Below the pieces are notes generated by a model. The model was not told the origin of the DNA, made no database searches, and worked only from the letters and a program-made list of their open reading frames with translations. A program made the translations under genes and the position numbers. A stretch of 64,000 nucleotides of DNA from a plasmid. This document shows, piece by piece, positions 16,123 to 35,121 of this stretch. The DNA lies in the sequence record NZ_CP119397.1; one strand, 5' to 3'. Position 1 is the stretch's first letter; each line of letters opens with the position of its first letter.

Positions 16123-16187
16123 TGTCCGCTCCCTGCTCAACGCGGACAGGGCCACGCGCCCGGCAGCCTGGTGCCGGAAGCGGACGT
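16123..16187. repeat. Copy 1 of ~60-bp inverted-repeat element (TGTCCGCtccctgCTCAacGCGGACA ... GTGCCGGAAGCGGACG)
   Basis: Seen directly. Family defined by L-end TGTCCGCTnnnCGCTCA, optional internal GCGGACA, and R-end CTGTGCCrrAAGCGGACA. Confidence 0.6.
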
Positions 16188-16229
16188 GGTTGAATTCACT
16201 GTCCGGATACGGGCCTCAAGACATTAATA

Positions 16230-17150
16230 TTATCCGTTCACCTCAGTGGTTCTGACGTTCTTCTCACCCCAGTAGGCTTTTGTCTCCACAATCTCTCCCG
16301 CCTCATTGAATTTCATTACGTCGATAACGTCGATAATGACGTTTTGCCCTCCCAGTTCTGTATGAATGGAGAACGCCATCGCAGCAGATTTCCCCTGCGT
16401 TGCCCGTACAGGTGCATTGAGCTCTACCCTGGAAGCCATCCCGTTTTTTACAAAAGACGCCAGGTTTTCTAACCCTGTAATCGGTGCTGTGCCTACCGGA
16501 TCCTCACCACTGAAATCCTGCGCAAACAAACCCAGAAAGGCATCGACATCTTTATTATTGATATGATCGAGATAGGAATGCAGCACACCTCGCATATGAG
16601 CTTCCGTAGGTGGTCGTAATGTATTGACATCAGGCATATATTTCGGAAGAAACGTCTCTTTTTCACCCTTAATAATTTGTATGTCATCCACACCCCAGTG
16701 AGCGTTTAGCGCCACAATTTTACCGTCTGCATTAAAGCGCATTACGTCTACCACCTGGATAAGCACTTCGTGGTCGCCAAAATCCATGTTAATTGTGAAA
16801 GCCATGGCCGCTGACCCACCGGGAGATGTGCGAATCGGAGCAGATAATTCCGCTTTTCGCATTGCAGACAGCCCCTCCCTGACGAAGGTTTCAATATGAC
16901 GTTTCCCGGAGACAGGATTTGCGCCCACCGGATCAATAATCACTGCGTCTTCCGCGTACATATCCAGGATTTTCTGAGGGTTCTTCTGGTTTAAGGCGTC
17001 AATATATTGAGTCAGAACCTCGTGCATATAGGCTTCAGTTGGAGAACAGGGGACCGACTCGCCTTTCATATATGCCTGAAGCACAACCTGCAAATCGGGT
17101 TGTGAATGCCCGCTATCTTTATTCATCACGCTATCCTCGCTAATTTTCAT
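16230..17150 (-). CDS. Tandem-duplicated SnoaL/NTF2-like (ketosteroid-isomerase fold) protein
   Basis: Two ~130 aa internal repeats (EAYMHEVLTQYIDALNQ... and EAHMRGVLHSYLDHINN...), each resembling an NTF2/SnoaL domain. Start taken at MKISEDS (GGAAGGTGG RBS). Confidence 0.55.
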   Translation of the reverse strand: MKISEDSVMNKDSGHSQPDLQVVLQAYMKGESVPCSPTEAYMHEVLTQYIDALNQKNPQKILDMYAEDAVIIDPVGANPVSGKRHIETFVREGLSAMRKAELSAPIRTSPGGSAAMAFTINMDFGDHEVLIQVVDVMRFNADGKIVALNAHWGVDDIQIIKGEKETFLPKYMPDVNTLRPPTEAHMRGVLHSYLDHINNKDVDAFLGLFAQDFSGEDPVGTAPITGLENLASFVKNGMASRVELNAPVRATQGKSAAMAFSIHTELGGQNVIIDVIDVMKFNEAGEIVETKAYWGEKNVRTTEVNG

Positions 17151-17445
17151 AGAGCCACCTTCCCGCTTTCGGTAGAACATGTCGGCACCATCAGCAATGA
17201 AAGATCACTATGTGGCCTCGTACTGTGCCACTGTCTCCTCAATACCGTTTATATCGTCATTACGAACAGTTGCTCACATTATGCACGGTTAACATGCCCC
17301 ACCTATTTACCGGCGGTAGCCGTAAATGAGCCGTTTCAGAATATACATTTATCAAAAACAGGAATAAATCGGCAAAAATAAGAAGATACTTCCCATATTT
17401 GGAAGGTTAAAGGGGGGTTAAGCGCTGCCAGGCTGAAGCGGAAAT

Positions 17446-17510
17446 GTCCGCTCCTCGCTCATAACGACCATAGGTTTATGCGGCGGTCTGTTTTGTGTCA
17501 GAAGCGGACG
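17446..17510. repeat. Copy 2 of the inverted-repeat element (L-end TGTCCGCTCCTCGCTCATAACGACCAT, R-end TGTGTCAGAAGCGGACG)
   Basis: Seen directly. Confidence 0.55.
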
Positions 17511-17846
17511 TTGGCTGAATTGAAAAAAATCGTGATGTGTTTTCATTAACGCAGATCGCCAAGGCCTTGGGTGCATCGGTGGCCGCAGAGGCGATTGACG
17601 CAGTGCAAACGATCGGTGCGGATGCCGTCCTTGGCTATAAGCAGCCGGTTCCAAAGACGCTGGACAGGCAGTACGCACGGCAGCCTGACAGTCGCGGATT
17701 GCGGCAGGCTCGTTAAGTCGGGCGGCGTCATTCTCGACATCACCCGTCGCCATCAACGCTGTTCCGCATATCCTTTCCCCCGGCCGAAAATTTGTGATGG
17801 CAAAGCAGCACATCGCGACGTTACATCCCTTGCAGACTGCGTGCGT

Positions 17847-18320
17847 TTAAATACGATGTGGGCGCGTGGCGAAGAAGACCACCGCGGCGCCGAGAGCGAC
17901 GATGAGCGTATCTTCAATCAGGCCGCTCTTGGTCTGCCCCATCGCTGCCATGGCCTTTTTGCGTGCCGCAAGCGTTGCATAGGCAAGTGGCACAGCGGCA
18001 GAGACAGCGATCGCTGCCCCGGTTTTTTCTTCTCCGCGGGGTGCCAATGCGGCGCCCGCAATCCCTGCACTGGCCACGCGTGCTGACAAGCCCAAAAACA
18101 CGGTGCGGTCCGGCGCTGACTTCATCTTGTCGCCAAAGAGTTCACCTACGCCCATCGCTAACGCGCCGTATTTGAATAGCGGACGGTCCAGCAGCAGGAG
18201 ACTGCCCGAGGTGTCGCGCCCGGCAGCGCGTGCTGTAGCCAGGGCCGCCATCGGCGTCATGGAACGGCAGCTGGCGACAAAGCCAATCAGGGCGGAATAA
18301 ACAAAATCGGTTATTTTCAT
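17847..18320 (-). CDS. DUF4126-like membrane protein
   Basis: 157 aa, Ala/Gly-rich, 4 predicted TM. Assignment from memory, low certainty. Confidence 0.45.
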   Translation of the reverse strand: MKITDFVYSALIGFVASCRSMTPMAALATARAAGRDTSGSLLLLDRPLFKYGALAMGVGELFGDKMKSAPDRTVFLGLSARVASAGIAGAALAPRGEEKTGAAIAVSAAVPLAYATLAARKKAMAAMGQTKSGLIEDTLIVALGAAVVFFATRPHRI

Positions 18321-18435
18321 TAGTTATCTCCCGGATAAACAGAGGTTTTTCCTTTTAGCGCTGAGTCGCATCCTGCAATGCCACAAGGATTTTTGCAGCC
18401 GGTGCGTGCCAGGCCATTCACTGTGCGCGGCCTCG

Positions 18436-18513
18436 TCGGCAAATGACTATTGCAATAGTCAGTATAGATGAACGGTTTGAGACGGCTGAAATGCCGGAAG
18501 TGGGAGGCGGAGG
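18436..18513. promoter_or_regulatory. Conserved ~78-bp upstream block A (GGCAAATGAC...CAGTATAGATGAAC...GCCGGAAGTGGGAGGC) upstream of the DUF4126 gene; contains a minus-strand TCTATACT sigma-S-like -10
   Basis: ~70% identical to the block at 31974-32050. A 14-bp core is identical in both. Confidence 0.45.
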
Positions 18514-18689
18514 AACGCGGAGCGCACGTCATTGCCGGGCCAAACCTCAGTGATAATCATCTGGCCGTCAGGTCGAGCGGCTACGGGCTTACTCCCTTCA
18601 TCGGCATGACTGTTCACCAGGAAGAGCTGATGCCGGACGGCCGCCTCCCGCTCAAAGCTGCCGGAGGTCTTCAATGGGCTTCAGAGTGC

Positions 18690-18742
18690 CAGATGCGGTC
18701 ATTTTGGCATTCGTCAGGCTGCTCTGTGCCAAAAGCGGACAT
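18690..18742. repeat. Copy 3 (diverged L-end; spacer + R-end 44/44 identical to copy at 24757-24800)
   Basis: CATTTTGGCATTCGTCAGGCTGCTCTGTGCCAAAAGCGGACAT identical in both places. Confidence 0.6.
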
Positions 18743-18930
18743 ATGTGCAGGGGTTACGCGTTTTTATTACCTATAGTCCCGGATTGAACAGGGTTACTGG
18801 CAGTTTTTGATGCGTTTTTGATGCATCTGGCAGAACGAACCTGAATGTGAGACCAACGCGCTTTCATCAACTTCTTTCAAAATAGAACCCGATAAGGTTA
18901 TGGTAGAAATTCTCCTTTAACTGGAAGCAG

Positions 18931-19758
18931 GTGTCGCGCATGTCAGCTCCACAATCGAATAAAGACTGGGTCAGAGTTGCACACACGCCGGGAAAAATTG
19001 AACGCCTGGAGGCTTACTTCAGTGGATATGGTTATGAACCTCATCGGCATGATACTTATGCGATCGGCAGGACACTGTCAGGTGTGCAAAGCTTTCGTTA
19101 CCGAGACAGTAAACAACACAGTTTACCAGGCGGGACAATAGTCCTGCATCCGGATGAAATTCATGATGGTGAGGCAGGAACGACAGAAGGATTTCAGTAC
19201 CGGATGCTGTATATCGAGCCGGCGTTAATTCAGAAAATTTTGGGCGGAAAACCATTACCATTTATTCCAGGTGGATTATCAGCAGATCCCCGGCTTTTTG
19301 CCGCTACCGGACCGCTGTTAAAAGCATCAGAAGATTCTATTGATGTCCTTGAAGAGGAGGATGCACTTTATGATCTTGCCCAGACTTTGGCCGTCGTAGG
19401 AGGGCAACGCTTTCGTCGCTGCCTTGTGGATTATCAGTCTGCAGAGCGCGCGCGCGAATATATACAATCGGAATTCAGCCAAAACATTACGCTGGAAACC
19501 TTATCTATCGTCTGTGGTAAAGATCGCTGGAGCCTGAGCCGGGATTTTCGGACACTTTTCGGCACGAGTCCTTATCGCTATGTAACAATGCGCCGTCTTG
19601 CATACTGCAGACATCTTATTCAGATAGGTCTGTCACTTGCTGAATCTGCTTTAGAGGCAGGGTTCTCAGATCAAAGCCATATGACACGGCAGTTTATAAA
19701 AGCATACGGTATTTCTCCGGGCCGTTGGCAAACCTTCATTCACCCCCATTGTGCCTGA
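18931..19758 (+). CDS. AraC family regulator (cupin N-domain + HTH)
   Basis: C-terminal AraC HTH (ESALEAGFSDQSHMTRQFIKAYGISPGRW). Confidence 0.8.
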   Translation: MSRMSAPQSNKDWVRVAHTPGKIERLEAYFSGYGYEPHRHDTYAIGRTLSGVQSFRYRDSKQHSLPGGTIVLHPDEIHDGEAGTTEGFQYRMLYIEPALIQKILGGKPLPFIPGGLSADPRLFAATGPLLKASEDSIDVLEEEDALYDLAQTLAVVGGQRFRRCLVDYQSAERAREYIQSEFSQNITLETLSIVCGKDRWSLSRDFRTLFGTSPYRYVTMRRLAYCRHLIQIGLSLAESALEAGFSDQSHMTRQFIKAYGISPGRWQTFIHPHCA

Positions 19759-19833
19759 GTTGCACGATCGTTCAAGACCGTCACAGCCACTTTATTTATC
19801 CTCGACGTTTCTTAAACATTAAGGAATGTCATC

Positions 19834-20196
19834 ATGTATTTACCGGTAAATCTGGAACAAAAATTCTCTCTTTTCCACACCCACTGGCAGCCAAAAGTCA
19901 TTGCGCAGATGAACGATTACCAGTTCAAAATCGTGAAAATAGCGGGCGACTTCATCTGGCACTCACATCCTGAAACCGACGAGGCCTTTATAGTAGTGGA
20001 GGGCGTATTGCGTATCGATTTTCGCGACGGCCACGTCCTCGTTAATCCGGGAGAAATCTACGTTGTACCAAAAGGTGTAGAACATAAAACGTCAGCCCAA
20101 ACGACGGTAAAAATGATGATGATAGAACCCTGTGGTGTGCTGAATACCGGACATGAGGGTGGGGAACGCACCGCTGAAAGCGATGTCTGGATCTAG
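19834..20196 (+). CDS. Cupin domain protein
   Basis: 120 aa with the two cupin motifs (HSHPETDEAFIVVEG ... PKGVEH). Confidence 0.65.
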   Translation: MYLPVNLEQKFSLFHTHWQPKVIAQMNDYQFKIVKIAGDFIWHSHPETDEAFIVVEGVLRIDFRDGHVLVNPGEIYVVPKGVEHKTSAQTTVKMMMIEPCGVLNTGHEGGERTAESDVWI

Positions 20197-20281
20197 CTGA
20201 GTTGTATCAGACAGCCCGGCTGGCTGGTCTGTCTGATATATCATAACTATTTAATAACCTCAGGCTCAATTCGAGCCTGAA

Positions 20282-20988
20282 CGTCCGCTTCTCGCTCATA
20301 TGGGACATCCATAATCACATCTCCTGCCTAATGGAGATTGAACATGACAATATCCCCCTGGAACAAAAGCCGTATCATTGGCCAGAAGCGACCTCTTCAG
20401 ATATCTCATATCTGGGGAATTCGCATCCGACTCGAGCTGGAAGGAAAAGTACGCGACCTGGCTCTGTTTAACCTTGCTCTGGACAGTAAACTTCGGGACT
20501 GTGATCTGGTGAAGCTGAAGGTTTCTGATGTAGCCTACGGACATTCTGTTTCGGGCAGAGCGACAGTACTGCAGCAAAAAACGGGGAGTCCTGTTCAGTT
20601 TGAACTGACTAAAGGAACCAGAGAGGCAGTAGCTGCATGGATTAGAATGGCTCATCTGCGCAGTGGCGACTATCTTTTCCAGTCCCGCGTCGGCTCTGCA
20701 CGCCACATCTCAACCAGGCAATATAACCGTATTTTTCATGGTTGGATTGAGAAGTTAGGTCTCGACGATTCGCTTTACAGTACGCATTCTATGCGCAGAA
20801 CTAAACCATATCTGATCTACAAAAAAACGAAAAACCTCCGGGTGATCCAGCTACTGTTGGGTCATAAAAAACTTGAAAGCACAGTTCGTTACCTTGGCAT
20901 TGAAGTCGATGATGCCTTGGAGATATCTGAGTCGATTGAAGTCTAAATCGCGAGGGCTGCTGTTGCAGCCCTATGCCAGAAGCGGACA
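20282..20988. mobile_element. 707-bp unit: L-end (CGTCCGCTTCTCGCTCATATGGGACAT) - tyrosine recombinase gene - R-end (CTATGCCAGAAGCGGACA); candidate autonomous member of the repeat family
   Basis: The L-end lies 30 bp before the recombinase ATG and the R-end 25 bp after its stop. The two ends are inverted copies (TGTCCGCTTCT core, 11/11). Confidence 0.5.
20338..20946 (+). CDS. Small tyrosine site-specific recombinase (phage-integrase catalytic domain only, FimB/FimE-size)
   Basis: 202 aa with the R...HxxR...H...Y tetrad pattern: HSMRRT (box II) and LLGHKKLESTVRYLG (His-Tyr). It lacks the N-terminal arm-binding domain and any IntI-specific insertion. Confidence 0.75.
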   Translation: MNMTISPWNKSRIIGQKRPLQISHIWGIRIRLELEGKVRDLALFNLALDSKLRDCDLVKLKVSDVAYGHSVSGRATVLQQKTGSPVQFELTKGTREAVAAWIRMAHLRSGDYLFQSRVGSARHISTRQYNRIFHGWIEKLGLDDSLYSTHSMRRTKPYLIYKKTKNLRVIQLLLGHKKLESTVRYLGIEVDDALEISESIEV

Positions 20989-21034
20989 CAACTAAAACAG
21001 ATGTAGTATGAATAAGGATTAAGGCGCTATATCT

Positions 21035-21664
21035 TCAGCTACGGCTAAATATCAGCTTTAGCCCTGCAATAGCGAAGCAGGAGGCTAATAACGCATCAAG
21101 CCCGCGACGAATACGACGATAAAATGCGCTCATTAATGGAGTCGAGAACAGCAGCGCATAGCCGCAGAATACTGCCACACAAATAGTCGCACAGCCGAAA
21201 ACTATCTCAGGTAAAGCAGAGGCTGCCGCGCCCGGTTTAAGTGCTACGGACATGATCGCCACCCAGGTGAGGATCGCTTTAGGATTGCCGACGTGCATCA
21301 GGATGCCCTGCTGGAAAAGTTTGCCATATGCGACGCTTTTGTCCTGTGATTTACACACGCTGGCGTCAGAGCGGGAAAGCGCAGATTTACCCGCTTTACA
21401 TGCCAGCCATAACAGATACAACCCACCTCCAATTTTTAACACGATCAGCAATTGAGCAAAAGTTGCAAGAACGGTTAACACGCCGCAGGCCGCCAGAAGC
21501 GCCCACATCATCGAACCGCCGATGACACCACCTGCCAGAGCCAAAGCTGCACCGCGGCCCTTATTCATGGCCGTACCCATAATAGCCATATTACTTGGCC
21601 CTGGGCTGGCTGTTGCGACAAAGTAAGTGGTGTAAATAAGAATTAGTTCATGCGAAAGCGCCAT
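21035..21664 (-). CDS. LysE/RhtB family exporter (second copy)
   Basis: 209 aa, LysE-type 6-TM pattern. Confidence 0.75.
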   Translation of the reverse strand: MALSHELILIYTTYFVATASPGPSNMAIMGTAMNKGRGAALALAGGVIGGSMMWALLAACGVLTVLATFAQLLIVLKIGGGLYLLWLACKAGKSALSRSDASVCKSQDKSVAYGKLFQQGILMHVGNPKAILTWVAIMSVALKPGAAASALPEIVFGCATICVAVFCGYALLFSTPLMSAFYRRIRRGLDALLASCFAIAGLKLIFSRS

Positions 21665-21767
21665 GCTTACCTCTATGTTGGGATTGTCCTTTGTTTCAGT
21701 TATATCGAATCGAGTAAAAATTCACTATGCATTCTTGCTTATTCTGACAATGAGCATGTTATCGAAA

Positions 21768-21822
21768 TGTCCGCTTTTCTCTCATAGCTGCTCTTGAAAC
21801 CTGCTCACTGGCAGCTCTGTGC
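21768..21822. repeat. Copy 6 of the inverted-repeat element (TGTCCGCTTTTCTCTCATAGCTG ... CTCTGTGCCAAGAGCGGCC)
   Basis: Seen directly. Confidence 0.55.
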
Positions 21823-22130
21823 CAAGAGCGGCCTTCAGCATTCCGCTTAACAGGGTAACGAAGTAAAAATCCCATTACGCAGAACGGCTTTGTTGCCTGA
21901 CAGAACTCAGTAAATAATGCTGGAGATAGTAAGTGATATTTCAATCAGCTGTCAGCCTGAGAAGCATTACAGCAAAATAAAGGCATGAATGATTTTTATC
22001 CTGTTCATATGTCCGCTAAAAATCCCTACTTCGCAGTTGTCATTTTTGAATAAGCAGTTGTCATCTTCTGATGAGTTTTGGGGCCGATTTAGCACGACAC
22101 TGGGGCATCTTTGTTAAAGAGGAACCCGGT

Positions 22131-23801
22131 ATGTTGAAAAATCCTTCACTCAAGTATAAAGCGCATCCTCCTGTCAGTCTTACTGACAGGCAATGGCCGG
22201 ATAACACGTTGACCCATCCACCGCGCTGGCTTTCTACGGATTTACGCGATGGTAATCAGTCGCTTGCTGAGCCCATGGACAACGCCCGGAAATTGAAATT
22301 TTGGGATCTTCTAATAGCTTGTGGTTTCCGTGAAATCGAGGTCGCGTTTCCCTCTGCTTCACAAACGGATTTTGATTTTGTGCGGACGCTCATTGAAGGT
22401 AAACGCATTCCAAAAAATGTGAACATTCAGGTTTTAACTCAGGCAAGAGAGGATTTGATTAGGCGGACATTTGTATCATTGCAGGGAGTTCATCAGGCGA
22501 CAGTTCATTTATATAATGCGACGGCGCCACTTTTCAGGGAAATCGTCTTTCGTCAGACACGTGATGAAATTGTTCAGCTTGCCATCGACGCGACCAGGCA
22601 AATCCGTCGATTATGCGATGAGACGCCGGAAACCGATTGGACATTTCAGTATTCTCCTGAAACGTTCTGCTTTACTGAGCCTGATTTTGCCCTTCAGATT
22701 TGTGAGGCCGTGGCAGAGGCCTGGGAGCCGGATACGTCTCGTCCCATGATTATCAACCTTCCTGCAACGGTTGAGGTCAGCATGCCTAATATTTACGCCG
22801 ATCAGATAGAATATTTTTGCCGCCATTTTTCGCGCCGCCAGCAGGTTTGTATAAGCGTTCATCCACACAACGATCGTGGAACAGGAATTGCCTGTGCTGA
22901 GCTTGCACTACTGGCTGGCGCTGATCGCGTTGAAGGCTGCCTGTTTGGAAACGGAGAGCGTACTGGCAATGCTGATTTAGTGACGCTGGCGCTGAATCTT
23001 TATACGCAGGGCATCTCACCCGGTCTCGACTTCAGTCAGATGAAAAAGGTGGTTGAAGTGGTGGAGGAATGCAATCAGCTGCCTGTTGCGCCGCGTCATC
23101 CCTACGCCGGCGAACTGGTTTTTACTGCTTTTTCCGGCTCCCATCAGGACGCAATCAAGAAAGGATTTGCTGCACGGCTGGGCACATCAGATTCTTTCTG
23201 GAAAATCCCCTATCTGCCGCTCGATCCGGCAGATATCGGTTGCAGCTATGAAGCGGTTATCCGTGTGAACAGCCAGTCAGGTAAAAGCGGTGCGGCCTGG
23301 CTACTCGAGCAAAATCATAACCTTATCCTGCCACGCCCGCTTCAGCAGGCATTCAGCCTTCGTGTGCAAAAAGAGGCGGAACGTGGTGAGAAAGAATTGT
23401 CACAGATGGCTGTCTGGAACCTGTTTCGTCAGGCGTATGGCATTGTTGACGCACCACCAATTCGTTTAAAAGAGTATGTCTGCAACAATCAGCCTGACCA
23501 GCGTACAGTGCTTTCTGCTGAGCTCATATGCCATGGTAAAAAGCTGAGCCTGACGGGAGAGGGAAATGGTTTCCTTTCAGCGGCTCTTACAGCCCTTTGC
23601 CGGGAGGTAAAAACAGAGCTTGAAATAGTGAGTTATCAGGAGCATGCACTTGGTAAACGCAGCGACAGTCGCTCCGTCGCTTATGTGTGCTGCCAGGACC
23701 GCACGGGGAGGTGCGCATGGGGAGTCAGTATTGACAGTGACATTACCCGTGCCTCTCTGCAGGCTATGCTAAACGCTGCAGCGGATTTCGTCACTTGCTG
23801 A
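22131..23801 (+). CDS. 2-isopropylmalate synthase-like, long bacterial type (LeuA type 2 / HMGL-like aldolase family)
   Basis: 556 aa with DLRDGNQS at the N-terminus, HxH metal site (VHPHNDRGTG) and a C-terminal LeuA dimerisation/regulatory domain. Start at ATG 22131 with an AAGAGGAA RBS. Confidence 0.7.
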   Translation: MLKNPSLKYKAHPPVSLTDRQWPDNTLTHPPRWLSTDLRDGNQSLAEPMDNARKLKFWDLLIACGFREIEVAFPSASQTDFDFVRTLIEGKRIPKNVNIQVLTQAREDLIRRTFVSLQGVHQATVHLYNATAPLFREIVFRQTRDEIVQLAIDATRQIRRLCDETPETDWTFQYSPETFCFTEPDFALQICEAVAEAWEPDTSRPMIINLPATVEVSMPNIYADQIEYFCRHFSRRQQVCISVHPHNDRGTGIACAELALLAGADRVEGCLFGNGERTGNADLVTLALNLYTQGISPGLDFSQMKKVVEVVEECNQLPVAPRHPYAGELVFTAFSGSHQDAIKKGFAARLGTSDSFWKIPYLPLDPADIGCSYEAVIRVNSQSGKSGAAWLLEQNHNLILPRPLQQAFSLRVQKEAERGEKELSQMAVWNLFRQAYGIVDAPPIRLKEYVCNNQPDQRTVLSAELICHGKKLSLTGEGNGFLSAALTALCREVKTELEIVSYQEHALGKRSDSRSVAYVCCQDRTGRCAWGVSIDSDITRASLQAMLNAAADFVTC

Positions 23802-24552
23802 AGTAATCACTGGGCGTCATTCCCATTACCCGCCGGAACATAACGCTGAACGCGCCGGGGCTGGCATAACCTGAATCCAGAGCCACCCGCGTTATTTGCT
23901 CGCCCTGCGCCAGGCGCGTCAGGGCGTGCAGAAGACGTGCTCGCCGAACCCACTCGCTGAACTGCATGCCAGTTTGCTGGTAAAAATGGCGGTTGAGCGT
24001 ACGCCCGCTGGCGTTGATTTTTACGGCCGCCTGCTCAATTGACCAAGTCTCATGCGGTGCATCGCGAACGGCTTGGCATAGCCGTTTCAGTCGCTCTGAG
24101 ACCGGCTCTGGCAGGTGAAACGGAAGCGTGTCCATAACGCGAACTTCATCAAGCATCAGTTCGTAAACACGTTCAGCCCGGCTTCCGGGCGTGTAGTCTT
24201 CAGGAAGCGTCAGCGCGCAGATAATCAGCTCCCGTAACAGGTCACTCACGCCAACAACCTGACAGATGACGGGCAGATCAGCCCGAGCCAGCGGCTCTAC
24301 AAAAAGCACCCTCGCCTTGACATCCCCTGTGATATGAAGAGCATGTGGGATATTTGCCGGTATCCATACTCCGCGTGAAGGAGGGACTATCCACAATCCG
24401 AGCCGGGTCTCAACGCGAATAACACCACTCAGCGTATGAATAAGCTGAGCACAGTTGTGCGTATGCCAGTCTTCATAATCGCCGTGCCTGTAGTCATGTG
24501 CATATGGAATAACTGACCGGCCTGAAAAATCAAAGTCGCTTTGTCTAGTCAC
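23791..24552 (-). CDS. AraC family regulator
   Basis: Cupin N-domain plus C-terminal AraC HTH. Overlaps the leuA-like stop by 11 nt. Confidence 0.8.
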   Translation of the reverse strand: MTRQSDFDFSGRSVIPYAHDYRHGDYEDWHTHNCAQLIHTLSGVIRVETRLGLWIVPPSRGVWIPANIPHALHITGDVKARVLFVEPLARADLPVICQVVGVSDLLRELIICALTLPEDYTPGSRAERVYELMLDEVRVMDTLPFHLPEPVSERLKRLCQAVRDAPHETWSIEQAAVKINASGRTLNRHFYQQTGMQFSEWVRRARLLHALTRLAQGEQITRVALDSGYASPGAFSVMFRRVMGMTPSDYFSK

Positions 24553-28312: not shown

Positions 28313-28444
28313 AAGTAAAATCCTTCGATAAATAAGAGGGGGCATTATATTTAAAGATTTAAATATGTAAATGTTTAGTTTGTGCTGTTTTCCAGGCAGC
28401 CCCGGCGTGTGTGCTTCCCCCTCGCCGCCATCCGCTGGTCAGCC

Positions 28445-29281
28445 TTATGGATAAACCACCCTGTAACCGTTCTCAGCCCTGAGAAGGCGGGCAAACCCGG
28501 CATGATTAAGATGCATTCCCGCAATAAGCAGTTTTTCCCTGACAGCCTGTTCTAGGAATTTTTGCCGTGTTTCTCTGGCCTGAACGAGATCCACATCAAA
28601 TGCAATGCCCACAGACGGGCAGGCTGACTGGACATGGGGAAAATGAACGAGATCGCCCCATATCATCAGGCTCTGGTCACCTGAATCAATGCGGAAGCCC
28701 ATATGCCCAGGCGTATGGCCCGGCAGCCATACAGGGCGAATCCCCGGCGTTATCTCTCTCTCATCAGCCAAACGTATCTTTCCGGCATAGGCGTTTAAGA
28801 CCTTACGCGCCAGAATGAAATTACGTTTGCCGCGCTCGTTGGCGCTTTGCTGTTTTTCATCATCCAGCCAGTGTTCAACTTCAAGTGGATGAAGATAAAG
28901 CTCAGCCTTTTTATAGACAGGCCCTCCGCGTTCATCCAGCAAGCCGCCAATATGATCGGGATGGCCGTGCGTCAATAATATTGTGTCAATATCATCAGGG
29001 TGGATGCCAAGCATCTCTTGTTTTTCCCGGAGTTGCCCGCCTACGTGGTTATGCCCACCTGCGCCGGCATCTATCAGGATAGTGCGTCCAGACCCACGGA
29101 TGAGGTAACAGTTGATATGGATGTGTCCATAATTCGCTATCCCGGCGCTGCGCTGGATACTTTCAGCTTCAGCGACCTGAATGCCTGACAGTAAATCCAG
29201 GGTTGCTTCCATTGTGCCATCGCTCAGCGCGATGACCTCATAACTGCCGACCTGACAGGACGGAAAAAGAGCTGATTGCAT
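28445..29281 (-). CDS. MBL-fold metallo-hydrolase
   Basis: THGHPDHIGG zinc-binding motif. Confidence 0.75.
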   Translation of the reverse strand: MQSALFPSCQVGSYEVIALSDGTMEATLDLLSGIQVAEAESIQRSAGIANYGHIHINCYLIRGSGRTILIDAGAGGHNHVGGQLREKQEMLGIHPDDIDTILLTHGHPDHIGGLLDERGGPVYKKAELYLHPLEVEHWLDDEKQQSANERGKRNFILARKVLNAYAGKIRLADEREITPGIRPVWLPGHTPGHMGFRIDSGDQSLMIWGDLVHFPHVQSACPSVGIAFDVDLVQARETRQKFLEQAVREKLLIAGMHLNHAGFARLLRAENGYRVVYP

Positions 29282-29437
29282 ACATACCCTTAAAGAGTGA
29301 AAACGAGCGATAACGTGGAGGATGACTTTTCATCATGCTAAACAAGGTATTCCTCTGTTAAAATCGATATTATTTCACTGCTTAGTGATATTTTGTCACT
29401 GAGAACAAGGCCTGCACAGGCATTCAAGGCTGCTATC

Positions 29438-30328
29438 ATGCCCATGAAAATCCCCAGTAGCCGCGCTCTGCTTGTCTTTGAGGCCGCAGCAAAGCACGGT
29501 AATTTCGCCCGCGCTGCGCAGGAATTGTCACTGACCGAGGGAGCAGTCAGCCGGCAGATAGCACGCCTTGAAACCATGCTGAATTGCAGGCTGTTTGATC
29601 GTACCGGCAGTCGCGTTAAGCTCAATCCGATTGGCGCCCGCTACGCACAACAGATACGCGAAACGCTTGAACGGCTCGAAAGGGATACCCAATCCATCAT
29701 GGGTATGCCGGAAGGCAGTACCAATCTGGATATCGCCGCACTGCCGACGTTTTCATGCCGCTGGCTGATTCCCCGCCTGCCCGGCTTTTACCTTCAGCAC
29801 CCTGATATCACAGTGAACATTGCCGCCAGAACCGATCCTTTTATTCTTGCCGGCAGTGGCTTTGATGCAGTGGTGCATTTTGATCATCCTGCATGGGCAG
29901 GCATGCATATGCAGTTTCTTTTCCAGGAAACGCTATTGCCCATCTGTCATCCAGCACTGGTTGAGAACAAAACAGATAACGCGGAATTAAATGCGCTTCC
30001 AAGGATCCACCGTCGCCAGAATCCGCAGGCATGGCAACACTATGCGCAGGAAACCGGGATCGTGCTTGATAAGCCGGCGCAGGGAATTCGCTATGATCTC
30101 CATGAAATGTCGATCGCCGCTGCGCTGTCAGGGCAAGGCGTCGCAATGGTGCCGCGCATGTATGTAGAAAGGGAATTAAATAACGGTGAGCTTGTTGCAC
30201 CCTGGCCTGAAGCCACATCATTAAGCAAAAGGTTTTTTTTAATTAAACCGGCCGAAACAAGCATTAATAACGCGGCGCTGCACGCCTTTGAGCGCTGGCT
30301 ATTGGCAGAGATTAAGCAAGAAACATAA
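29438..30328 (+). CDS. LysR family transcriptional regulator
   Basis: wHTH AAKHGNFARAAQELSLTEGAVSRQIARLE. Start at the internal Met is more plausible than at 29393. Confidence 0.75.
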   Translation: MPMKIPSSRALLVFEAAAKHGNFARAAQELSLTEGAVSRQIARLETMLNCRLFDRTGSRVKLNPIGARYAQQIRETLERLERDTQSIMGMPEGSTNLDIAALPTFSCRWLIPRLPGFYLQHPDITVNIAARTDPFILAGSGFDAVVHFDHPAWAGMHMQFLFQETLLPICHPALVENKTDNAELNALPRIHRRQNPQAWQHYAQETGIVLDKPAQGIRYDLHEMSIAAALSGQGVAMVPRMYVERELNNGELVAPWPEATSLSKRFFLIKPAETSINNAALHAFERWLLAEIKQET

Positions 30329-30430
30329 CCTCGCCGGTACTGATAAACGCTACCCCCGGCTCCATGTGCAGCCGTAACACCTCTTCCAGGCCACCCGCCA
30401 CCCGAAGAGGGGGGCGTTAAGGCCCATCAA

Positions 30431-30494
30431 TGCCCGCTTGCCGCTCAAAGCGGACATGGCACCCGCCCCAGGCGGTTCTGTGCCGGAGTGGGCA
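30431..30494. repeat. Copy 11 with covarying ends (TGCCCGCttgccgctcaaaGCGGACA ... TTCTGTGCCGGAGTGGGCA)
   Basis: The L-core TGCCCGC and R-core GTGGGCA change together relative to TGTCCGC/GCGGACA. Confidence 0.55.
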
Positions 30495-30586
30495 TCGATC
30501 ATAGAAAATGTGCCATTCTGAGCGCCCGGCGCGTATCCTGCCTGACATAATGACCCTGCGATGTGCGTACTTCTGAGGATGCCGAC

Positions 30587-31069
30587 ATGACCGCTTTTCA
30601 TCAACTGACAGCCACCAGCCTGCGTGGCCAGCTCATCCCAATGGCCGACTACGCCGGCAAGCTGGTTATCGTGGTGAATACCGCCAGCCATTGTGGATTC
30701 ACGCCACAATACGCAGGCCTTGAATCGCTCTACCAGAAATACGCTGAAAAGGGGCTGGTGGTGCTTGGTTTTCCCTGCAACCAGTTCGGTAAGCAGGAAC
30801 CCGGCGGTGCTGATGACATCGCGCAGACCTGCCACATCAACTACGGTGTGAGCTTCCCGATGTTCGGGAAAGTGGAGGTTAACGGCAGCTCAACGCACCC
30901 GGTGTTTCGTTACCTGAAAGCCGAGTTGCCCGGCGTACTGGGCAGGCGGATCACCTGGAACTTTACCAAGTTCCTGATCGGACGGGACGGTAAACCACTC
31001 AGGCGTTTTGCCCCGATCACCACCCCGGAGAAAATGGAAGCCGCCATCCTTACGGCACTTCAACGCTAA
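30587..31069 (+). CDS. Glutathione peroxidase (Cys-type, BtuE-like)
   Basis: NTASHCGFT active-site motif and FPCNQFG, WNFTKFL signatures. GAGGA RBS before ATG 30587. Confidence 0.85.
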   Translation: MTAFHQLTATSLRGQLIPMADYAGKLVIVVNTASHCGFTPQYAGLESLYQKYAEKGLVVLGFPCNQFGKQEPGGADDIAQTCHINYGVSFPMFGKVEVNGSSTHPVFRYLKAELPGVLGRRITWNFTKFLIGRDGKPLRRFAPITTPEKMEAAILTALQR

Positions 31070-31340
31070 GCGTTTCCCGGCACTGTTTGCGCCATGCAGC
31101 CTATCGCACGGCGGCTCAGAGTGAATGCCGGGTCAACATGTTGAATGAGTGTCAGCTTGCGACTGCACATGGGCGAACATCGGGCGGCACTTTGGCATGA
31201 AGGGCCGTACCCGTACGTCAACCCTGACAACAATGACACTCCTGTCATGACATTCTGCAACACGTCGAACAAAGGGCGGTCCCTGCCACAGGACCGTCAG
31301 CCCCCGGATAACCTGTTCACTGGCTTGCCGGCATAGCGGG

Positions 31341-31910
31341 TTACATCGACATCTGCTGGGCGGATTTCAGGTGCTGTTCAACCACCGGCGTATGCGCCTC
31401 GGCCAGGGCTTTCACATCCGGGTCCGTGATGTTTTTGGCGTCACTCTGTAGTTTCGACAGCACCATCTCGTGGTCTTTAGTGCCGGCGTTTTCCATGTAC
31501 ATCTTGTCAAATGCGCTGCCGCTTTGCGCTTCCAGCTTGGTGGCCATGGCTTTGTGCTCGGCGTCCGGCTCAGTCGGCAGTGCGATGCCTTTTTGCTGGG
31601 CGACCGTCTGTACTTTAGTCAAGGCACTGCCGTGGTCTTCGATCATCTTCTGGGCGAATGCTTTAACGTCACTGCTTTGGGCTTTACTCAGCGCGATCTT
31701 GGCGGCGGCGATTTCGTTAATATTGGCCTGTGCCATGTCCTTCACCGCTTTTTCATCACCGGCGCTGAGTTTGGTACCCGATGCGGCCTGGCCTGCGGCA
31801 CTGGTCTGCGCGGCGCTTGCCGGCGCCTGGGCTTGCACTGCGGCAGTGCTGAACATTGCGGCGACTGCCGATGCGACGAGCAGCCCTTTCAAGGTTTGGC
31901 TCTTTTGCAT
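31341..31910 (-). CDS. DUF4142-family periplasmic protein (signal peptide, Ala/Gln-rich)
   Basis: 189 aa with an N-terminal signal peptide and helical repeats typical of DUF4142 stress proteins. Confidence 0.6.
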   Translation of the reverse strand: MQKSQTLKGLLVASAVAAMFSTAAVQAQAPASAAQTSAAGQAASGTKLSAGDEKAVKDMAQANINEIAAAKIALSKAQSSDVKAFAQKMIEDHGSALTKVQTVAQQKGIALPTEPDAEHKAMATKLEAQSGSAFDKMYMENAGTKDHEMVLSKLQSDAKNITDPDVKALAEAHTPVVEQHLKSAQQMSM

Positions 31911-31973
31911 GTTGTTCTCCTGATGGTCATGGGGAGGGTAGGGGTCAGGTCATTAACCGTGCGCAACCTTGCA

Positions 31974-32050
31974 GGCAAATGACAACGGCACTATTCAGTA
32001 TAGATGAACAATCCGGGGCGGCAGGAATGGCGGCAGCGGGAGGCTGAAGC
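31974..32050. promoter_or_regulatory. Conserved upstream block B upstream of the DUF4142 gene (same motif as 18436-18513)
   Basis: GGCAAATGAC + CAGTATAGATGAAC + GGCGGCAGCGGGAGGC shared with block A. Confidence 0.45.
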
Positions 32051-32172
32051 TGACGTGATAGATGCCCTGAACGCTGAGAATGACAAAAAACGGCCTGAGC
32101 AAACCCAGATCAGAACAGCGCGTTTTTACCGGCGGGGGCATCATTCAACATGACGTTATCGGTAAGAGGGTT

Positions 32173-33075
32173 TCACGGCCGAGGTAATGCCCCTTTTTGG
32201 GCTTTTTCAAAGCCCTGTTTGTTTATTCTCATTGGCGTCACCGGCATACCATAAAAATCAAACGCCTCTCCGGTAATGTCCCCGCCAAGCTGGGTAATAA
32301 TCCTGACCGTTGTATCCCGGGCTTCGATGATTATCTCGTTATTGTGCTGGAAGCATTCTTTTAACGAGGTGAGGGCTAACCGTTTGCCTATCCCCATGCC
32401 TCTGTATTCCGGCTCAACGGCAAAACGCCCCCAGTGACACTGATCATTTTCCTGCCAGCAGGCTACGGCGCCCAGCAGATATTCTCCCGAACGCGCTACC
32501 CACCATTTGCCTGCGTATTCTTCAGGGATGCTGATGAGATGGTCAGGAATTTTCTGTTCATCAAAAAAGGTTTCACGTAAAAGACGGTCAACCTCTGAAC
32601 GTTGGTTTTCCCGCAAACGCTCAATCAGGATCCTCTCCGGATTACGCGCACAGTTGCGGCGGAATGCCCCTTTACGGAACGTGCTTAAGCCTTTAACAAG
32701 GGCTTCTACTTCATTATTTTCCATGTGCACATTGATAAAGCTCAGGTCTTTATCGGCTATGCTATTGGCTTTTGATAATGTTGCCTGGCCTGCCGTTGTG
32801 ATTCGGAAGTGTTTAACCCGTTTGTCTTTTGATATAAAAAGCGACTCAGCATAATCCTTCTCTATCAAAGCCGTTAACATCCGGCTTAGCGAGGCTTTAT
32901 CGATAGTTAACTGAATTTGAAGCTCATTGAATGACGTTATTCCGTTTTTGAACAAATAGGTGAGAAGATGAGCCTGCGTCAATGACAGTCCCGTCCCAAA
33001 ACAGTTTTTATCAAGTAACCCCAGCTCTCTGACGAGATAGCGTAATTCAGCCCGGATGTCATGAATATAAGACAT
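32173..33075 (-). CDS. MarR-type HTH fused to GNAT N-acetyltransferase
   Basis: N-terminal MarR wHTH (LSLTQAHLLTYLFKNGITSFNELQIQL), C-terminal GNAT motif A (RGMGIGKRL). Start at 33075 (AAGGGA RBS) is favoured over 33117. Confidence 0.65.
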   Translation of the reverse strand: MSYIHDIRAELRYLVRELGLLDKNCFGTGLSLTQAHLLTYLFKNGITSFNELQIQLTIDKASLSRMLTALIEKDYAESLFISKDKRVKHFRITTAGQATLSKANSIADKDLSFINVHMENNEVEALVKGLSTFRKGAFRRNCARNPERILIERLRENQRSEVDRLLRETFFDEQKIPDHLISIPEEYAGKWWVARSGEYLLGAVACWQENDQCHWGRFAVEPEYRGMGIGKRLALTSLKECFQHNNEIIIEARDTTVRIITQLGGDITGEAFDFYGMPVTPMRINKQGFEKAQKGALPRP

Positions 33076-33089
33076 AAATTCCCTTATTG

Positions 33090-33158
33090 TTGATACTATC
33101 AATTTTTTATTTAACATGGGGTCGCAATGTTGTCAATAATATTGGTTGATAGTATCAA
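33090..33158. promoter_or_regulatory. Pair of 13-bp palindromes TTGATA(C/G)TATCAA in the 5' region of the MarR-GNAT gene; candidate autoregulatory operators
   Basis: 33090-33102 TTGATACTATCAA and 33146-33158 TTGATAGTATCAA, inverse copies of each other, 43 bp apart. Confidence 0.45.
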
Positions 33159-33204
33159 CAAAGTTGAATAACGGGTCTCCTGTGGCGGTGAAGCCTGTCT
33201 CTGC

Positions 33205-34035
33205 CTACATCTTTTGGCGATCTGCGCCGTAGGCCACGGCTTTCAGTGCGTGCAGCGCGTCCAGGCGCATCTGCAATGCCGCGTCAATATTGTCATAGGC
33301 GGTGCTGCCGAGCGGCAGGCGTAACAGGGGGCCGGCAGCATCAGCCGCGGTGATTATCGCCGTAACGCATTTTTGCGCATCCCCCTTAATCGCAAACTCA
33401 CCGCTCATCAGCGCTGCCCGCAGTTTTCCTGCTGCCGTCTCACGGTACACGGGTAAGGCATCAGCGATATCCAGCCCCGCACCAAACTGCGTCGCCGTCG
33501 GCCCCGGCTCTACCAGCAAGAAGTCGATGCCGAACGCCGCCACTTCCTGCCGCACCGCTTCGACAAAACCTTCTATGCCCCATTTAGTGGCGTGATACAC
33601 ACTGAAACCGGGATAAGCGATCTGGCCCCCTTCTGAGGAAACCTGCACGATACGGCCGCCGCCCTGTTGCCGCATAAACGGAATCACTGCGCGAATCAGC
33701 TGGATTGAGCCGGTGAGATTGGTCGCGATCTGCCGTTCAATCTGCCTGTCGTCCAGTTCTTCCGCTGCGCCAAACAGCCCATAAGCCGCGTTGCTCACCA
33801 CCACATCAATCCGCCCCGCCTGAGCAAATGCCGCTTCAACGAGGGGCCTGATGGTGGCCGTCTTACTGATATCAAGCACCACCACCTGCAAATTATCACC
33901 GTATTGCACGCGCATATCCTCTAATGCCGCTTCACGCCGGACACTTGCCACGACCCGATCGCCACGGGCCAGCAGGTTTTCACACATCAGGCGGCCCAGT
34001 CCGCTGGATGCGCCGGTAATCAGCCAGGTTTTCAT
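33205..34035 (-). CDS. SDR family oxidoreductase
   Basis: TGASSGLG and YHATKWGIEG motifs. Start at the second ATG (GGAG RBS 9 nt upstream). Confidence 0.8.
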   Translation of the reverse strand: MKTWLITGASSGLGRLMCENLLARGDRVVASVRREAALEDMRVQYGDNLQVVVLDISKTATIRPLVEAAFAQAGRIDVVVSNAAYGLFGAAEELDDRQIERQIATNLTGSIQLIRAVIPFMRQQGGGRIVQVSSEGGQIAYPGFSVYHATKWGIEGFVEAVRQEVAAFGIDFLLVEPGPTATQFGAGLDIADALPVYRETAAGKLRAALMSGEFAIKGDAQKCVTAIITAADAAGPLLRLPLGSTAYDNIDAALQMRLDALHALKAVAYGADRQKM

Positions 34036-34120
34036 GATTTTCATCTCCGTTTAGTGAACTGACGTTCAGCTTAAAACAAATGATTGATGGCATAATCTCC
34101 CCAAACCGGCATGAGATGGT

Positions 34121-35038
34121 GTGAAATATTCAACAATGAGACGCCCTTCCTGGAACGAATTACTGGCAGTAAAAACAGTGGCCGACCAGCGCAGTTTTCG
34201 CCGCGCTGCCGATGTGCTCGGGCTGAAACGTTCAACGCTCAGCCATACGATCAAAGGGCTGGAGACGGCGCTTGGCGTGCGGCTTTTCCACCGGACAACC
34301 CGAAGCGTGGCATTGACCGAAACCGGCGAAATGCTGATTGAACGCCTGGCACCGCTGCTCACCCAGATGGATGAGCTGCTGAACGACGTGACCGCCAGCG
34401 ACCATCAGCCCTATGGGACACTGCGCATCAGCGCCAGTGATGCCGCGATCAGCCTGCTGCTGGAAGCCATATTGCCGGCATTCATCCAGAAATATCCGGG
34501 GATTGAAATGGATGTCGTCGCGCAAGGCCAGTTGGTGGATATTGTGGAGCAGGGGTTTGATGCAGGCATACGGCTGTTTGAAGATGTGCCTAAAGATATG
34601 GTGGCCGTTTCCCTGAGCGGGCCGTTGCGCTTTGTTACGGTGGCCTCGCCTGATTACCTGGCCTCGCGGCCTGAAATTCAGCATCCACAGGATGTCATGC
34701 AGCACACCTGCTTACGGCAGCGCCTGCCGGGCGGGAAACGTTACCATTGGGAATATCAGCAGGATGAGCAACAGTTTGCCCTGGATGTTCCGGGCAGCCT
34801 GACCCTTAACAGCAGCGCGTTAATGGTTGAGGCGGCTGTTGCCGGGATGGGCCTGGCCTATGTGCCGGAGCGCTATGCCCGGCCGTGGCTGTCAACCCAA
34901 CAACTGGTAACGTTGTTAGACGACTGGACGATAGCGTCACAAGGTATGGCGCTCTACTTCCCGCAGAATCGTCATATGCCCGTCGCGTTACGGCTGTTTA
35001 TTGATACGGTAAACGCGACCCTGCGCCCCCGCCATTGA
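34121..35038 (+). CDS. LysR family transcriptional regulator
   Basis: wHTH FRRAADVLGLKRSTLSHTIKGLE. Divergent from the SDR gene. Confidence 0.8.
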   Translation: MKYSTMRRPSWNELLAVKTVADQRSFRRAADVLGLKRSTLSHTIKGLETALGVRLFHRTTRSVALTETGEMLIERLAPLLTQMDELLNDVTASDHQPYGTLRISASDAAISLLLEAILPAFIQKYPGIEMDVVAQGQLVDIVEQGFDAGIRLFEDVPKDMVAVSLSGPLRFVTVASPDYLASRPEIQHPQDVMQHTCLRQRLPGGKRYHWEYQQDEQQFALDVPGSLTLNSSALMVEAAVAGMGLAYVPERYARPWLSTQQLVTLLDDWTIASQGMALYFPQNRHMPVALRLFIDTVNATLRPRH

Positions 35039-35084
35039 GTTCCGGCCCTGGTCATAAAATCACACGGGTGAAAAGGGATACCAG

Positions 35085-35121
35085 GCCCTGACAGGGGGCC
35101 GCTTTGTGCCGGAAGCGGACA
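35085..35121. repeat. R-end copy (CTTTGTGCCGGAAGCGGACA) preceded by a short GC hairpin
   Basis: Seen directly. Confidence 0.45.

Follow-up and report, generated by a model that had tools for sequence, protein, structure and literature searches.

The 64,000-nucleotide stretch of DNA considered here (the window, numbered from its first letter) is part of a 250,769-bp plasmid of Chimaeribacter arupi (NZ_CP119397.1), to which exact protein matches assign it and which has sister plasmids in C. arupi and Nissabacter archeti. The GC profile sets a segment at 12.9–35.1 kb, with ~50–54% GC, apart from the plasmid backbone at ~60–64%, and the genes of this segment display piecewise identities of 80–97% to genes dispersed over Pantoea, Duffyella, Kosakonia and Klebsiella plasmids. 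The Pfam-supported units include RidA+TetR, a nucleotidase, HxlR+SDR, a SnoaL protein, AraC+cupin, LysE, LeuA-like+AraC, an alpha/beta hydrolase, a CN hydrolase, an OYE reductase, MBL+LysR and a glutathione peroxidase, among others—small modules that include pairs of a regulator and an enzyme, with both gene directions represented. Throughout the segment these modules are parted by short inverted-repeat elements made up of two kinds of site, S1 and S2, all on one strand, and one pair of sites encloses int, a gene for a 200-residue tyrosine recombinase (Int) whose recombination sites the repeats probably are. Rfam at gathering thresholds gave no match in the window, and a tRNA/tmRNA scan was likewise empty.

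Each ~68-bp element consists of two adjacent 28-bp core sites, both with an 11-nt arm, a 6-nt centre and an inverted 11-nt arm; such an 11-6-11 core is the standard layout of a tyrosine-recombinase site. The consensus of 34 copies reads AnGTCCGCTnT-TCGCTC-ATAGCGGACCT, a spacer of ~18 nt, then nGTCCGCTTT-GTGCCA-GAAGCGGACAT. The left site (S1, the L end of the element) has the centre TCGCTC and the right one (S2, the R end) the centre GTGCCA. S2 is an inverted S1, and its reversed centre, TGGCAC, equals that of S1 once the bases at positions 2 and 5 are complemented; since the arms are symmetrical, it is the central hexamer that sets the orientation of a site. An earlier reading of this DNA, made without database searches (the sequence-only reading), had described the two ends as mutual inverted repeats. 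The inverted relation stands, but the ends are not mere halves of a repeat, each of them being a complete palindromic site. All 12 central positions are conserved at 90% or more in the 34-copy alignment, and among 227 scanned sites the exact hexamers are present in 99 of 114 S1 and 92 of 113 S2, figures to be taken as upper bounds because the collection of copies by motif search favours these motifs. Within composites, that is, elements with both sites, the centres of S1 and S2 lie ~39–42 bp apart, with peaks at 39 and 42 bp. The interiors of the composites in the alignment vary from copy to copy, and no target-site duplications were found when they were sought at the window copies.

The L motif TGTCCGCTNNNCGCTCA, with at most two mismatches, occurs 11 times in the window against an expectation of 0.51 (none of 100 shuffles reaches 11) and the R motif four times against 0.02; repeat finding recovered seven L copies and a shared 48-nt stretch. 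A position-weight matrix (PWM) trained on the 34 copies, with a shuffle maximum of 14.0 bits, located 16 half-sites at 10 loci, all on the + strand and all within 16122–35122; in the other 45 kb of the window no site scores above the shuffle maximum. The same-orientation family confined to 16–35 kb that the sequence-only reading had proposed is therefore real. Its copies are intergenic, as was also claimed, relative to Pfam-supported genes, and their strand is constant whatever the direction of the neighbouring genes. The count of at least 12 elements does not stand: there are the 10 scored loci and a doubtful left-arm fragment of 9 nt on the same strand (ATGTCCGCT, 22010–22018, without a PWM score), which may be due to chance because a given 9-mer is expected ~0.5 times in 128 kb. 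The scored loci comprise five full composites of ~66–69 bp, one degenerate composite with an extra S2, two solo S2, one solo S1 and one int-bearing unit of ~709 bp.

From left to right, the first composite (16122–16187) consists of S1 at 16122–16149 (centre CTGCTC, 27 bits) and S2 at 16160–16187 (GTGCCG, 28 bits), and the second (17444–17511) of S1 at 17444–17471 (TCGCTC, 34 bits) and S2 at 17484–17511 (GTGTCA, 37 bits). The degenerate composite (18637–18742) has a weak S1 at 18637–18664 (CCGCTC, 18 bits), a weak S2 at 18675–18702 (12.6 bits) and a second S2 at 18715–18742 (39 bits). Beyond the int-bearing unit (20281–20989) lies a composite at 21767–21835, with S1 at 21767–21794 (TCTCTC, 34 bits) and S2 at 21808–21835 (GTGCCA, 29 bits), and then one at 24734–24801, the S1 of which (24734–24761, 43 bits) is a perfect 11-6-11 palindrome, ATGTCCGCTGT TCGCTC ACAGCGGACAT, followed by S2 at 24774–24801 (39 bits). 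A solo S2 with a degenerate right arm (25810–25837, GTGCCG, 22 bits) stands upstream of the CN-hydrolase module, which is found between two composites in a Duffyella plasmid (locus L088 of our collection). The solo S1 at 26755–26782 (ATGTCCGCTTT TCGCTC AACGCGGACGT, 37 bits) is the point at which the Kosakonia homologue of the module downstream of it begins. The composite at 30430–30495 has S1 at 30430–30457 (ATGCCCGCTTG CCGCTC AAAGCGGACAT, 28 bits) and a degenerate S2, read from the sequence, with the centre GTGCCG at 30480–30485 and a right arm, GAGTGGGCAT, that is one base short; the coupled change of its two ends to which the sequence-only reading had drawn attention is indeed present, ATGCCCGC / GTGGGCAT (ATGCCC / GGGCAT).

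The right boundary of the array is marked by a solo S2 at 35095–35122 (GGGGCCGCTTT GTGCCG GAAGCGGACAG, 29 bits), directly after which the GC content climbs to 0.61. On the left, a possible decayed S2 on the + strand at 12894–12921 (ACGGCCGGGTT GTGCCG GGCGCGGATGT) scores 12.2 bits, below the shuffle maximum; what makes it suggestive is solely its place, where the GC content changes and homology sets in (that of Pantoea to the first module begins at 12893–12903). By its GC profile and the PWM scan the whole array is placed at 12894–35122, with 12894–16121 counted into it solely by virtue of this sub-threshold site and the GC and homology boundary. Two stretches of 48 nt, 18695–18742 and 24754–24801, are 98% identical, in agreement with the spacer and R end reported earlier as common to two copies. 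They bracket a 6.1-kb strain-specific segment, of which the degenerate composite at 18637–18742 is the left border and the composite at 24734–24801 the right one. The S2 sites at 16160, 18715, 21808 and 24774 have a left arm GCAGCyCT like that of the int unit's S2 (20962), not the canonical GTCCGCTTT, which is the form in most composites of other genomes; to judge from this arm, such window composites may be deletion derivatives of the int unit.

Positions 20282 and 20971, which the sequence-only reading had listed as elements, are in fact the two ends of one recombinase-enclosing unit. Its S1 (20281–20308; ACGTCCGCTTC TCGCTC ATATGGGACAT, 33 bits) is followed by the int leader (20310–20343), by int itself (20344–20946) and, at 20954–20989, by a hairpin GGGCTGC-TGTT-GCAGCCC (20954–20971), the S2 centre ATGCCA (20973–20978; S2 scores 17 bits) and the right arm GAAGCGGACAC (20979–20989), all on the + strand. 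A linked recombinase had been named beforehand as the decisive feature, and this 200-codon gene between 20281 and 20989 had been missed. Int consists of the catalytic domain only: it matches the Phage_integrase family (PF00589, E = 4.2e-19) and lacks a DNA-binding domain at the N terminus. The motifs R, HxxR, H and Y of Int (KLRDCDL, HSMRRT, LLGH...RY) can be aligned with those of XerD, the XerD counterparts being R148, H244/R247 and H270/Y279, and the motif residues are invariant in 24 Int homologues. Together with the domain match they place Int in the tyrosine recombinase superfamily; the conserved K was assigned by eye, there being no residue-for-residue alignment with XerD. NCBIfam yields only generic sub-threshold matches, the best with 58 bits against a cut-off of 220 (XerA), and an AlphaFold model built on the 24-sequence alignment is poor (mean predicted local distance difference test score, pLDDT, 52.5). 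Homologues of Int are very numerous, with no fewer than 7999 clusters when grouped at 90% identity, and unusually conserved: identity is 85–95% among the plasmids of Pantoea, Erwinia, Proteus, Providencia, Klebsiella and E. coli, and 60–67% in Pseudomonas, Paraburkholderia, Methylophilus and Pseudoalteromonas.

The linkage between int and the sites is strict. In every Enterobacterales locus examined S1 lies ~63 nt upstream of the int ATG, and a hairpin and then S2 follow ~27 nt past the stop codon. Homology between the window and 17 Enterobacterales loci spans 20280(±4) to 20987(±2), the flanks being unrelated with no homology outside; because it stops at the ends of the unit, S1-int-S2 is a discrete element occurring in unrelated contexts. 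The leader has a −10-like box (CATAAT, 20310–20315) and a hairpin (20316–20341) that pairs ATCTCC with the Shine-Dalgarno sequence GGAGAT (RNA folding, −11.4 kcal/mol, z = −3.5). A −10-like box (CATAAT or CATACT) and a hairpin pairing with the Shine-Dalgarno GGAG, with different stems, are present in 9 of 10 distant relatives, and the same design is found upstream of int in L004, L017, L069, L049 and others. RNAalifold gave no prediction for these leaders because MAFFT misaligned the unlike stems, and single-sequence folds were used instead. The hairpin probably shields int translation from read-through transcription; in this it resembles the arrangement by which transposase translation in IS10 and IS50 is protected from read-through transcripts. 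The leader design fits a self-regulating mobile element.

Relatives of Int with inverted ends are found throughout the Gamma- and Betaproteobacteria. In distant relatives (Pseudomonas, Betaproteobacteria) the inverted ends are specific to the lineage and retain the arms GTCCGCT / AGCG(G)AC; in the Pseudomonas type a perfect 24-nt inverted repeat (GTCCGCTTCTGGCCGGTTAGCGAC) keeping these arms lies at the corresponding places. In seven Pseudomonas and Stutzerimonas loci (L035, L040, L049, L051, L063, L075, L082; int at ~10001–10588 of the locus) the 24-nt repeats have identical centres (GTCCGCTTC TGGCCG GTTAGCGAC), and few further sites lie nearby. The Pseudomonas-type unit may there be an inversion switch or a solitary element, not an organiser of arrays.

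Arrays like that of the window recur in other replicons. In 15 Enterobacterales loci anchored on int, the int strand carries 80 further sites and the opposite one 11, which fall into three unbroken blocks, one being situated between copies of IS5. The order of neighbours is mostly S1, S2, S1, S2 (80 + 80 of 192 pairs). Intervals from S1 to S2 are either ~40 bp long or hold int (681–685 bp) or, rarely, cargo, and those from S2 to S1 hold cargo, with a median of 1.1 kb. In the complete 197,206-bp Pantoea agglomerans plasmid pNBBC01-2 all 31 sites, 30 of them on the int strand, lie in one 41-kb arc that begins at 191.2 kb, crosses the origin of the record, ends at 34.8 kb and includes the int unit, the remaining 156 kb being free of sites. 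The end of the array in this plasmid (NZ_CP099730.1, L108–L111) falls at the maximum of the cumulative GC skew (36 kb), with RepB at the skew minimum (~99–100 kb). The array is thus on one presumed replichore beside the terminus, its S1-to-S2 strand being the lagging-strand template, an observation from one plasmid and based on GC skew, which is unreliable in plasmids. With a 77-nt query, the element was recovered at full length in 155 records of plasmids of Pantoea, Klebsiella, Enterobacter, Cronobacter, Rahnella and Kosakonia, with ~75–80% identity across genera and with matches in unannotated intergenic DNA in all among the records listed. Full-length matches occur in 71 of 5426 E. coli genomes, and genomes with any match have it in 1–3 places (median 1).

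The sites are also the places at which homology between plasmids breaks off. An all-against-all megablast of 28 Enterobacterales loci yielded, after removal of int units and of artefacts at locus edges, 67 internal endpoints of homology. Of these, 37 (55%) are no more than 20 bp away from the centre of a site, where 1.7% would be expected at random and 200 randomisations gave at most 6%; when the int units are counted as well, 113 of 170 are that close. The AraC+cupin module (window 18726–20312) is 97% identical in a P. vagans plasmid, the homology starting on the left at the S2 hexamer GTGCCA and ending on the right just past the S1 hexamer (TCGCTCATA); in the P. vagans plasmid a solo S1 occupies the place of the window's S1-int-S2. 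A 2.4-kb unit consisting of S1, a chemoreceptor (MCP) gene and S2 is ~97.6% identical in ~20 Pantoea plasmids among the matches listed. In the five contexts examined (the query plasmid and four others), all of them different, the unit is conserved from the S1 centre (c1) to the S2 centre (c2), and the outer arms are specific to the context. The leuA module comparisons (88–91% identity) are too diverged for the placement of breakpoints.

Sister Chimaeribacter plasmids, with backbones that are 99% identical, differ in array content at the sites. In two of them a LysR+SDR module replaces the 6.1 kb of the window that holds AraC+cupin, the int unit, LysE and LeuA-like+AraC. The sister loci L101, L103 and L104 part from the window exactly after the CCGCTC hexamer of S1@18637, and homology with L101 and L103 restarts at 24735. 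These comparisons of related plasmids yielded the module rearrangements that the sequence-only reading had looked to them for, and its suggestion of a recombination-site system organising the accessory region is supported in that breakpoints cluster at the sites and modules rearrange there. In the Nissabacter archeti sisters (L102 and L105, 14150–20888) a block of P2-like tail and portal genes, SMC/AAA and SIR2 is inserted at window 16008–16009, directly after the SDR stop codon and 114 bp to the left of the first composite. As an event at a site this breakpoint, which is seen in L095 as well, was rejected: it is off-site and is put down to a P2-like prophage or defence insertion.

What could be the process behind an array of this kind? 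We consider it probable that the repeats are the recombination sites of Int, a self-encoded recombinase reduced to its catalytic domain, and that like sites exchange with like. We infer that Int binds and cuts them, that circular products arise and that pairing is like with like. Int would bind the arms of a site as a dimer and exchange strands across the hexamer, recombining S1 with S1 and S2 with S2; only like sites would react, because the hexamers must match. Since the array sites are all co-oriented, intramolecular recombination would excise a circle, which could re-insert at a like site. Intermolecular recombination would integrate such a circle or fuse two replicons, and exchange once more, now at sites of the other kind, would resolve the fusion and swap the segment between the sites. 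Such a course matches the cointegrate model discussed for the dif modules of Acinetobacter (PMC13141974) as well as recombinase-mediated cassette exchange. Any composite could receive the int unit in place of its short spacer, which would let the unit spread, and recombination between the inverted sites within one composite or one int unit would be prevented by the two positions at which the S1 and S2 centres differ. Exchange at a pair of S1 followed by exchange at a pair of S2 fits both kinds of conserved unit, those running from c1 to c2 (int, MCP) and those running from c2 to c1 (AraC+cupin).

Several points weigh against this explanation. The alternation of sites is not strict, given 17 S1-S1 and 15 S2-S2 pairs among the 192 neighbours, and the S2 of the int unit itself (20962) is without the canonical left arm. 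The right edge of the 6.1-kb segment is the outer edge of S1@24734, not its hexamer, and one breakpoint of the difference of L103 in the SnoaL module is 310 bp distant from the nearest site. The motif-based collection of copies in part exaggerates site conservation, and homologous recombination across conserved repeats of 28–70 bp could explain part of the breakpoint pattern.

The same recombinase and the same sites might instead react as a folded single strand, as integron attC sites do. The hairpin of S1 and S2, with outer arms (a1/a4), centres (c1/c2) and inner arms (a2/a3) paired, would then mimic one core site, and its loops, whether spacer, int or cargo, would be swapped. In this whole-element hairpin the centres invariably give C.C and T.T mismatches (34 of 34 copies), which are strand-specific and resemble the extrahelical bases of attC. 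Covariation between the L and R ends, surmised in the sequence-only reading from the coupled change at 30430, is present only to a modest degree in the outer arms (0.144 against 0.122 ± 0.007, a value that 2 of 500 shuffles attain; the pairs between columns 2 and 73 are UA 10, CG 7, UG 4), and inside single sites the 34 copies display none. Folded as single-stranded DNA, three of five copies in the window are more stable than shuffles (z = −3.2 to −5.4). Conserved c1-to-c2 units with variable outer arms are what a swap of loops would be expected to produce, and the sites of pNBBC01-2 lie on one strand of one presumed replichore. Each half of the element, however, is already a complete double-stranded palindromic site, and solo S1 and S2, for which a hairpin-only model has no need, are common and mark module borders. 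Weak as it is, the covariation could stem from common descent, int units would have to fold over a loop of ~650 nt, Int has no counterpart of the extra domain by which integron integrases read extrahelical bases, and the mismatches are equally well explained as a bar to recombination of S1 with S2. Because the halves are full double-stranded sites, because solo sites are common and because the covariation is possibly inherited, we rate this form of the reaction lower and hold it to be unlikely.

Other explanations were weighed as well. The ~68-bp elements could be non-autonomous deletion derivatives of the ~709-bp int element, transposing into intergenic DNA in the manner of MITEs (miniature inverted-repeat transposable elements), with modularity as a side-effect. 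The small elements and the int unit do have both ends in common, the four window S2 with the arm GCAGCyCT look like int-unit derivatives, and S1-X-S2 units (int, MCP) act as discrete movable units, so the comparison with MITEs that the sequence-only reading had ventured retains some substance. It fails in that no copy has a target-site duplication, no DDE transposase is present, and the interiors vary, unlike those of an amplified MITE family. Furthermore, the outer arms follow the context and hence the ends are not carried along when a unit moves; S2-to-S1 cargo also moves in units, with breakpoints inside sites; and the sites form one same-strand array instead of being scattered, with solo half-sites frequent. 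A MITE of the DDE type is accordingly rejected, and the derivative model as a whole appears distinctly improbable. Still less credible is that the sites are dif-like and worked by host XerC/XerD, with int as mere cargo. The 28-bp 11-6-11 layout, the inverted neighbouring sites and the occurrence of modules in many contexts are those of the pdif modules of Acinetobacter (PMC13141974). Here, however, both arms have the same sequence (GTCCGCT / AGCGGAC) and lack the asymmetry of distinct XerC and XerD arms, in every lineage the sites flank the dedicated recombinase gene at constant distances, and their sequence shifts with the int lineage, so the system does not appear to belong to Xer/dif. Enterobacterial dif is GGTGCGCATAA-TGTATA-TTATGTTAAAT, and the S1 and S2 arms bear no likeness to it. 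Least plausible of all, and very nearly negligible, is that the elements are ordinary species-specific repeats of the repetitive extragenic palindrome or bacterial interspersed mosaic element type (REP/BIME), terminators or regulatory hairpins without a role in recombination. They are intergenic, palindromic and foldable, as such a reading requires. Their restriction to at most three places per E. coli genome and their confinement to one arc exclude an ordinary REP-type repeat: there are none in 45 kb of the window and none in 156 kb of pNBBC01-2. The sites keep to one strand, that of the recombinase (80 against 11), whatever the direction of neighbouring genes; they extend over many genera at ~75–80% identity, without an Rfam family match, and are linked to a recombinase and to homology breakpoints. 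On the basis of the E. coli genomes, the window and pNBBC01-2—low copy number, a single same-strand array and no REP-associated tyrosine transposase (RAYT)—membership in REP/BIME was rejected, as the sequence-only reading had anticipated.

Some further features of the window are recorded here for completeness. Between the divergent RidA and TetR genes, at 13430–13500, an imperfect palindrome ACATACGCGGCGTATGT occurs twice, and its copies look like TetR operators. A repeat of ~110 nt with 74% identity, at 18401–18511 and 31937–32047, stands upstream of two minus-strand genes, one for a 157-residue protein without a Pfam match and the other for a DUF4142 protein; it may be a shared promoter or leader. 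Outside the array, a Phd/YefM-type antitoxin gene lies at 53500–53793. Exact-match queries with the proteins of the right flank returned nothing. At the right end of the window (62000–64000) the GC content falls sharply to ~45%, and this part holds two open reading frames without a Pfam match (62084–62524 and 62527–63207) and a gene for Hcp of type VI secretion (63310–63789).

If Int does exchange like sites, the consequences reach beyond this plasmid. We tentatively raise the possibility, which we would put somewhat below an even chance, of a third natural platform for the capture and exchange of gene modules beside integrons and dif modules. In it, a 200-residue Int carried between its own heterospecific 28-bp sites would power the exchange of cassettes between large accessory plasmids (Pantoea LPP-1-type, Klebsiella IncF/HI1B, Chimaeribacter and others). 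In the boldest version it would do so on folded single strands, with the invariant C.C/T.T mismatches picking the strand, in convergence with the logic of attC. We found no description of the system in open-access PMC and bioRxiv full text, by keyword and by exact search with six site strings, figures not being indexed there; an earlier description elsewhere is possible. The large accessory plasmids of plant-associated and clinical Enterobacterales are highly variable in content, by mechanisms that are mostly unassigned, and the array system, if true, would explain the traffic of regulator-plus-enzyme, chemoreceptor and detoxification modules among Pantoea, Erwinia, Klebsiella, Enterobacter, Kosakonia and Chimaeribacter replicons. 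The S1 and S2 sites, unannotated in every record examined, would let annotators delimit modules, and a small recombinase with natural heterospecific sites might, on the same premise, serve as a tool for genome engineering.

Among known systems, integrons likewise have arrays of co-oriented imperfect palindromes of ~60–70 bp that part mobile gene units in a low-GC mosaic. In both systems the element is composed of two inverted simple sites with two recombinase-binding boxes each, and the mismatches of the folded strand are conserved. The window elements are nevertheless not attC sites, in keeping with the sequence-only reading, for their ends (AYGTCCGCT ... AGCGGACRT) have no RYYYAAC/GTTRRRY (AAC/GTT) cores. 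Int, with only 200 residues, scores 15.5 bits against the integron-integrase model NF011946, which has a cut-off of 435. Here, moreover, an attI or Pc platform is missing, the recombinase gene sits within a site and shares the strand of the array, the modules have their own regulators and run in both directions instead of being promoterless one-way cassettes, and crossovers fall at both halves of the element and not at one point. The FimB/FimE invertases are also tyrosine recombinases of ~200 residues without an N-terminal core-binding domain, with a gene adjoining short inverted sites, and positions 26–172 of the NCBIfam invertase profile (198 positions) align to Int residues 36–184. Membership was rejected at scores of 34.2 and 21.8 bits for NF007371 and NF007370, against cut-offs of 222 and 221. 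The present system differs from theirs by its arrayed 28-bp 11-6-11 cores and by having no promoter-bearing invertible segment; as the ends of the Enterobacterales units have non-identical centres, inversion should be blocked. The 'xerC' system upstream of mcr-10 (L113, pMCR10_090065, 26058–27053), the recombination sites of which were reported as unknown (PMC7067168), was rejected as a relative: its product is a tyrosine recombinase of 331 residues and matches Int in BLASTP over 38 residues only (24% identity, E = 0.004), and no S1/S2 array lies near that recombinase in pMCR10_090065. With MITEs and REP/BIME the elements have in common that they are short, intergenic and bounded by terminal inverted repeats, some copies here looking as if derived by deletion from a parent that bore a gene. 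Engineered recombinase-mediated cassette exchange with heterospecific lox or FRT sites follows the same logic of equal arms and incompatible spacers leading to the swap of a segment, a laboratory design to which the arrangement described here would be the natural analogue.

The closest parallel is perhaps with dif modules, for which inverted neighbouring pdif sites, the replacement of single modules between sites with identical spacers, and a course of cointegrate formation followed by resolution have been reported or proposed (PMC13141974). Both systems have 28-bp 11-6-11 sites with inverted neighbours and accessory modules in many plasmid contexts, the modules often carrying their own regulators or toxin-antitoxin genes. 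As in dif modules, we find units bounded by inverted sites in different contexts (the MCP unit, in five) and the replacement of modules in sister plasmids. The differences lie in the agents and the grammar. One self-encoded recombinase of 200 residues, carried between two sites, here takes the place of host XerC and XerD, and the arms are symmetrical with only two spacer classes. The S1-to-S2 interval is nearly always ~40 bp, with the cargo in S2-to-S1, and the hosts are Enterobacterales (Pantoea, Erwinia, Klebsiella, Chimaeribacter and others) with very large plasmids. How single modules flanked by inverted sites come to move, the question posed by dif modules, is thus directly testable here with one small protein and two defined sites.

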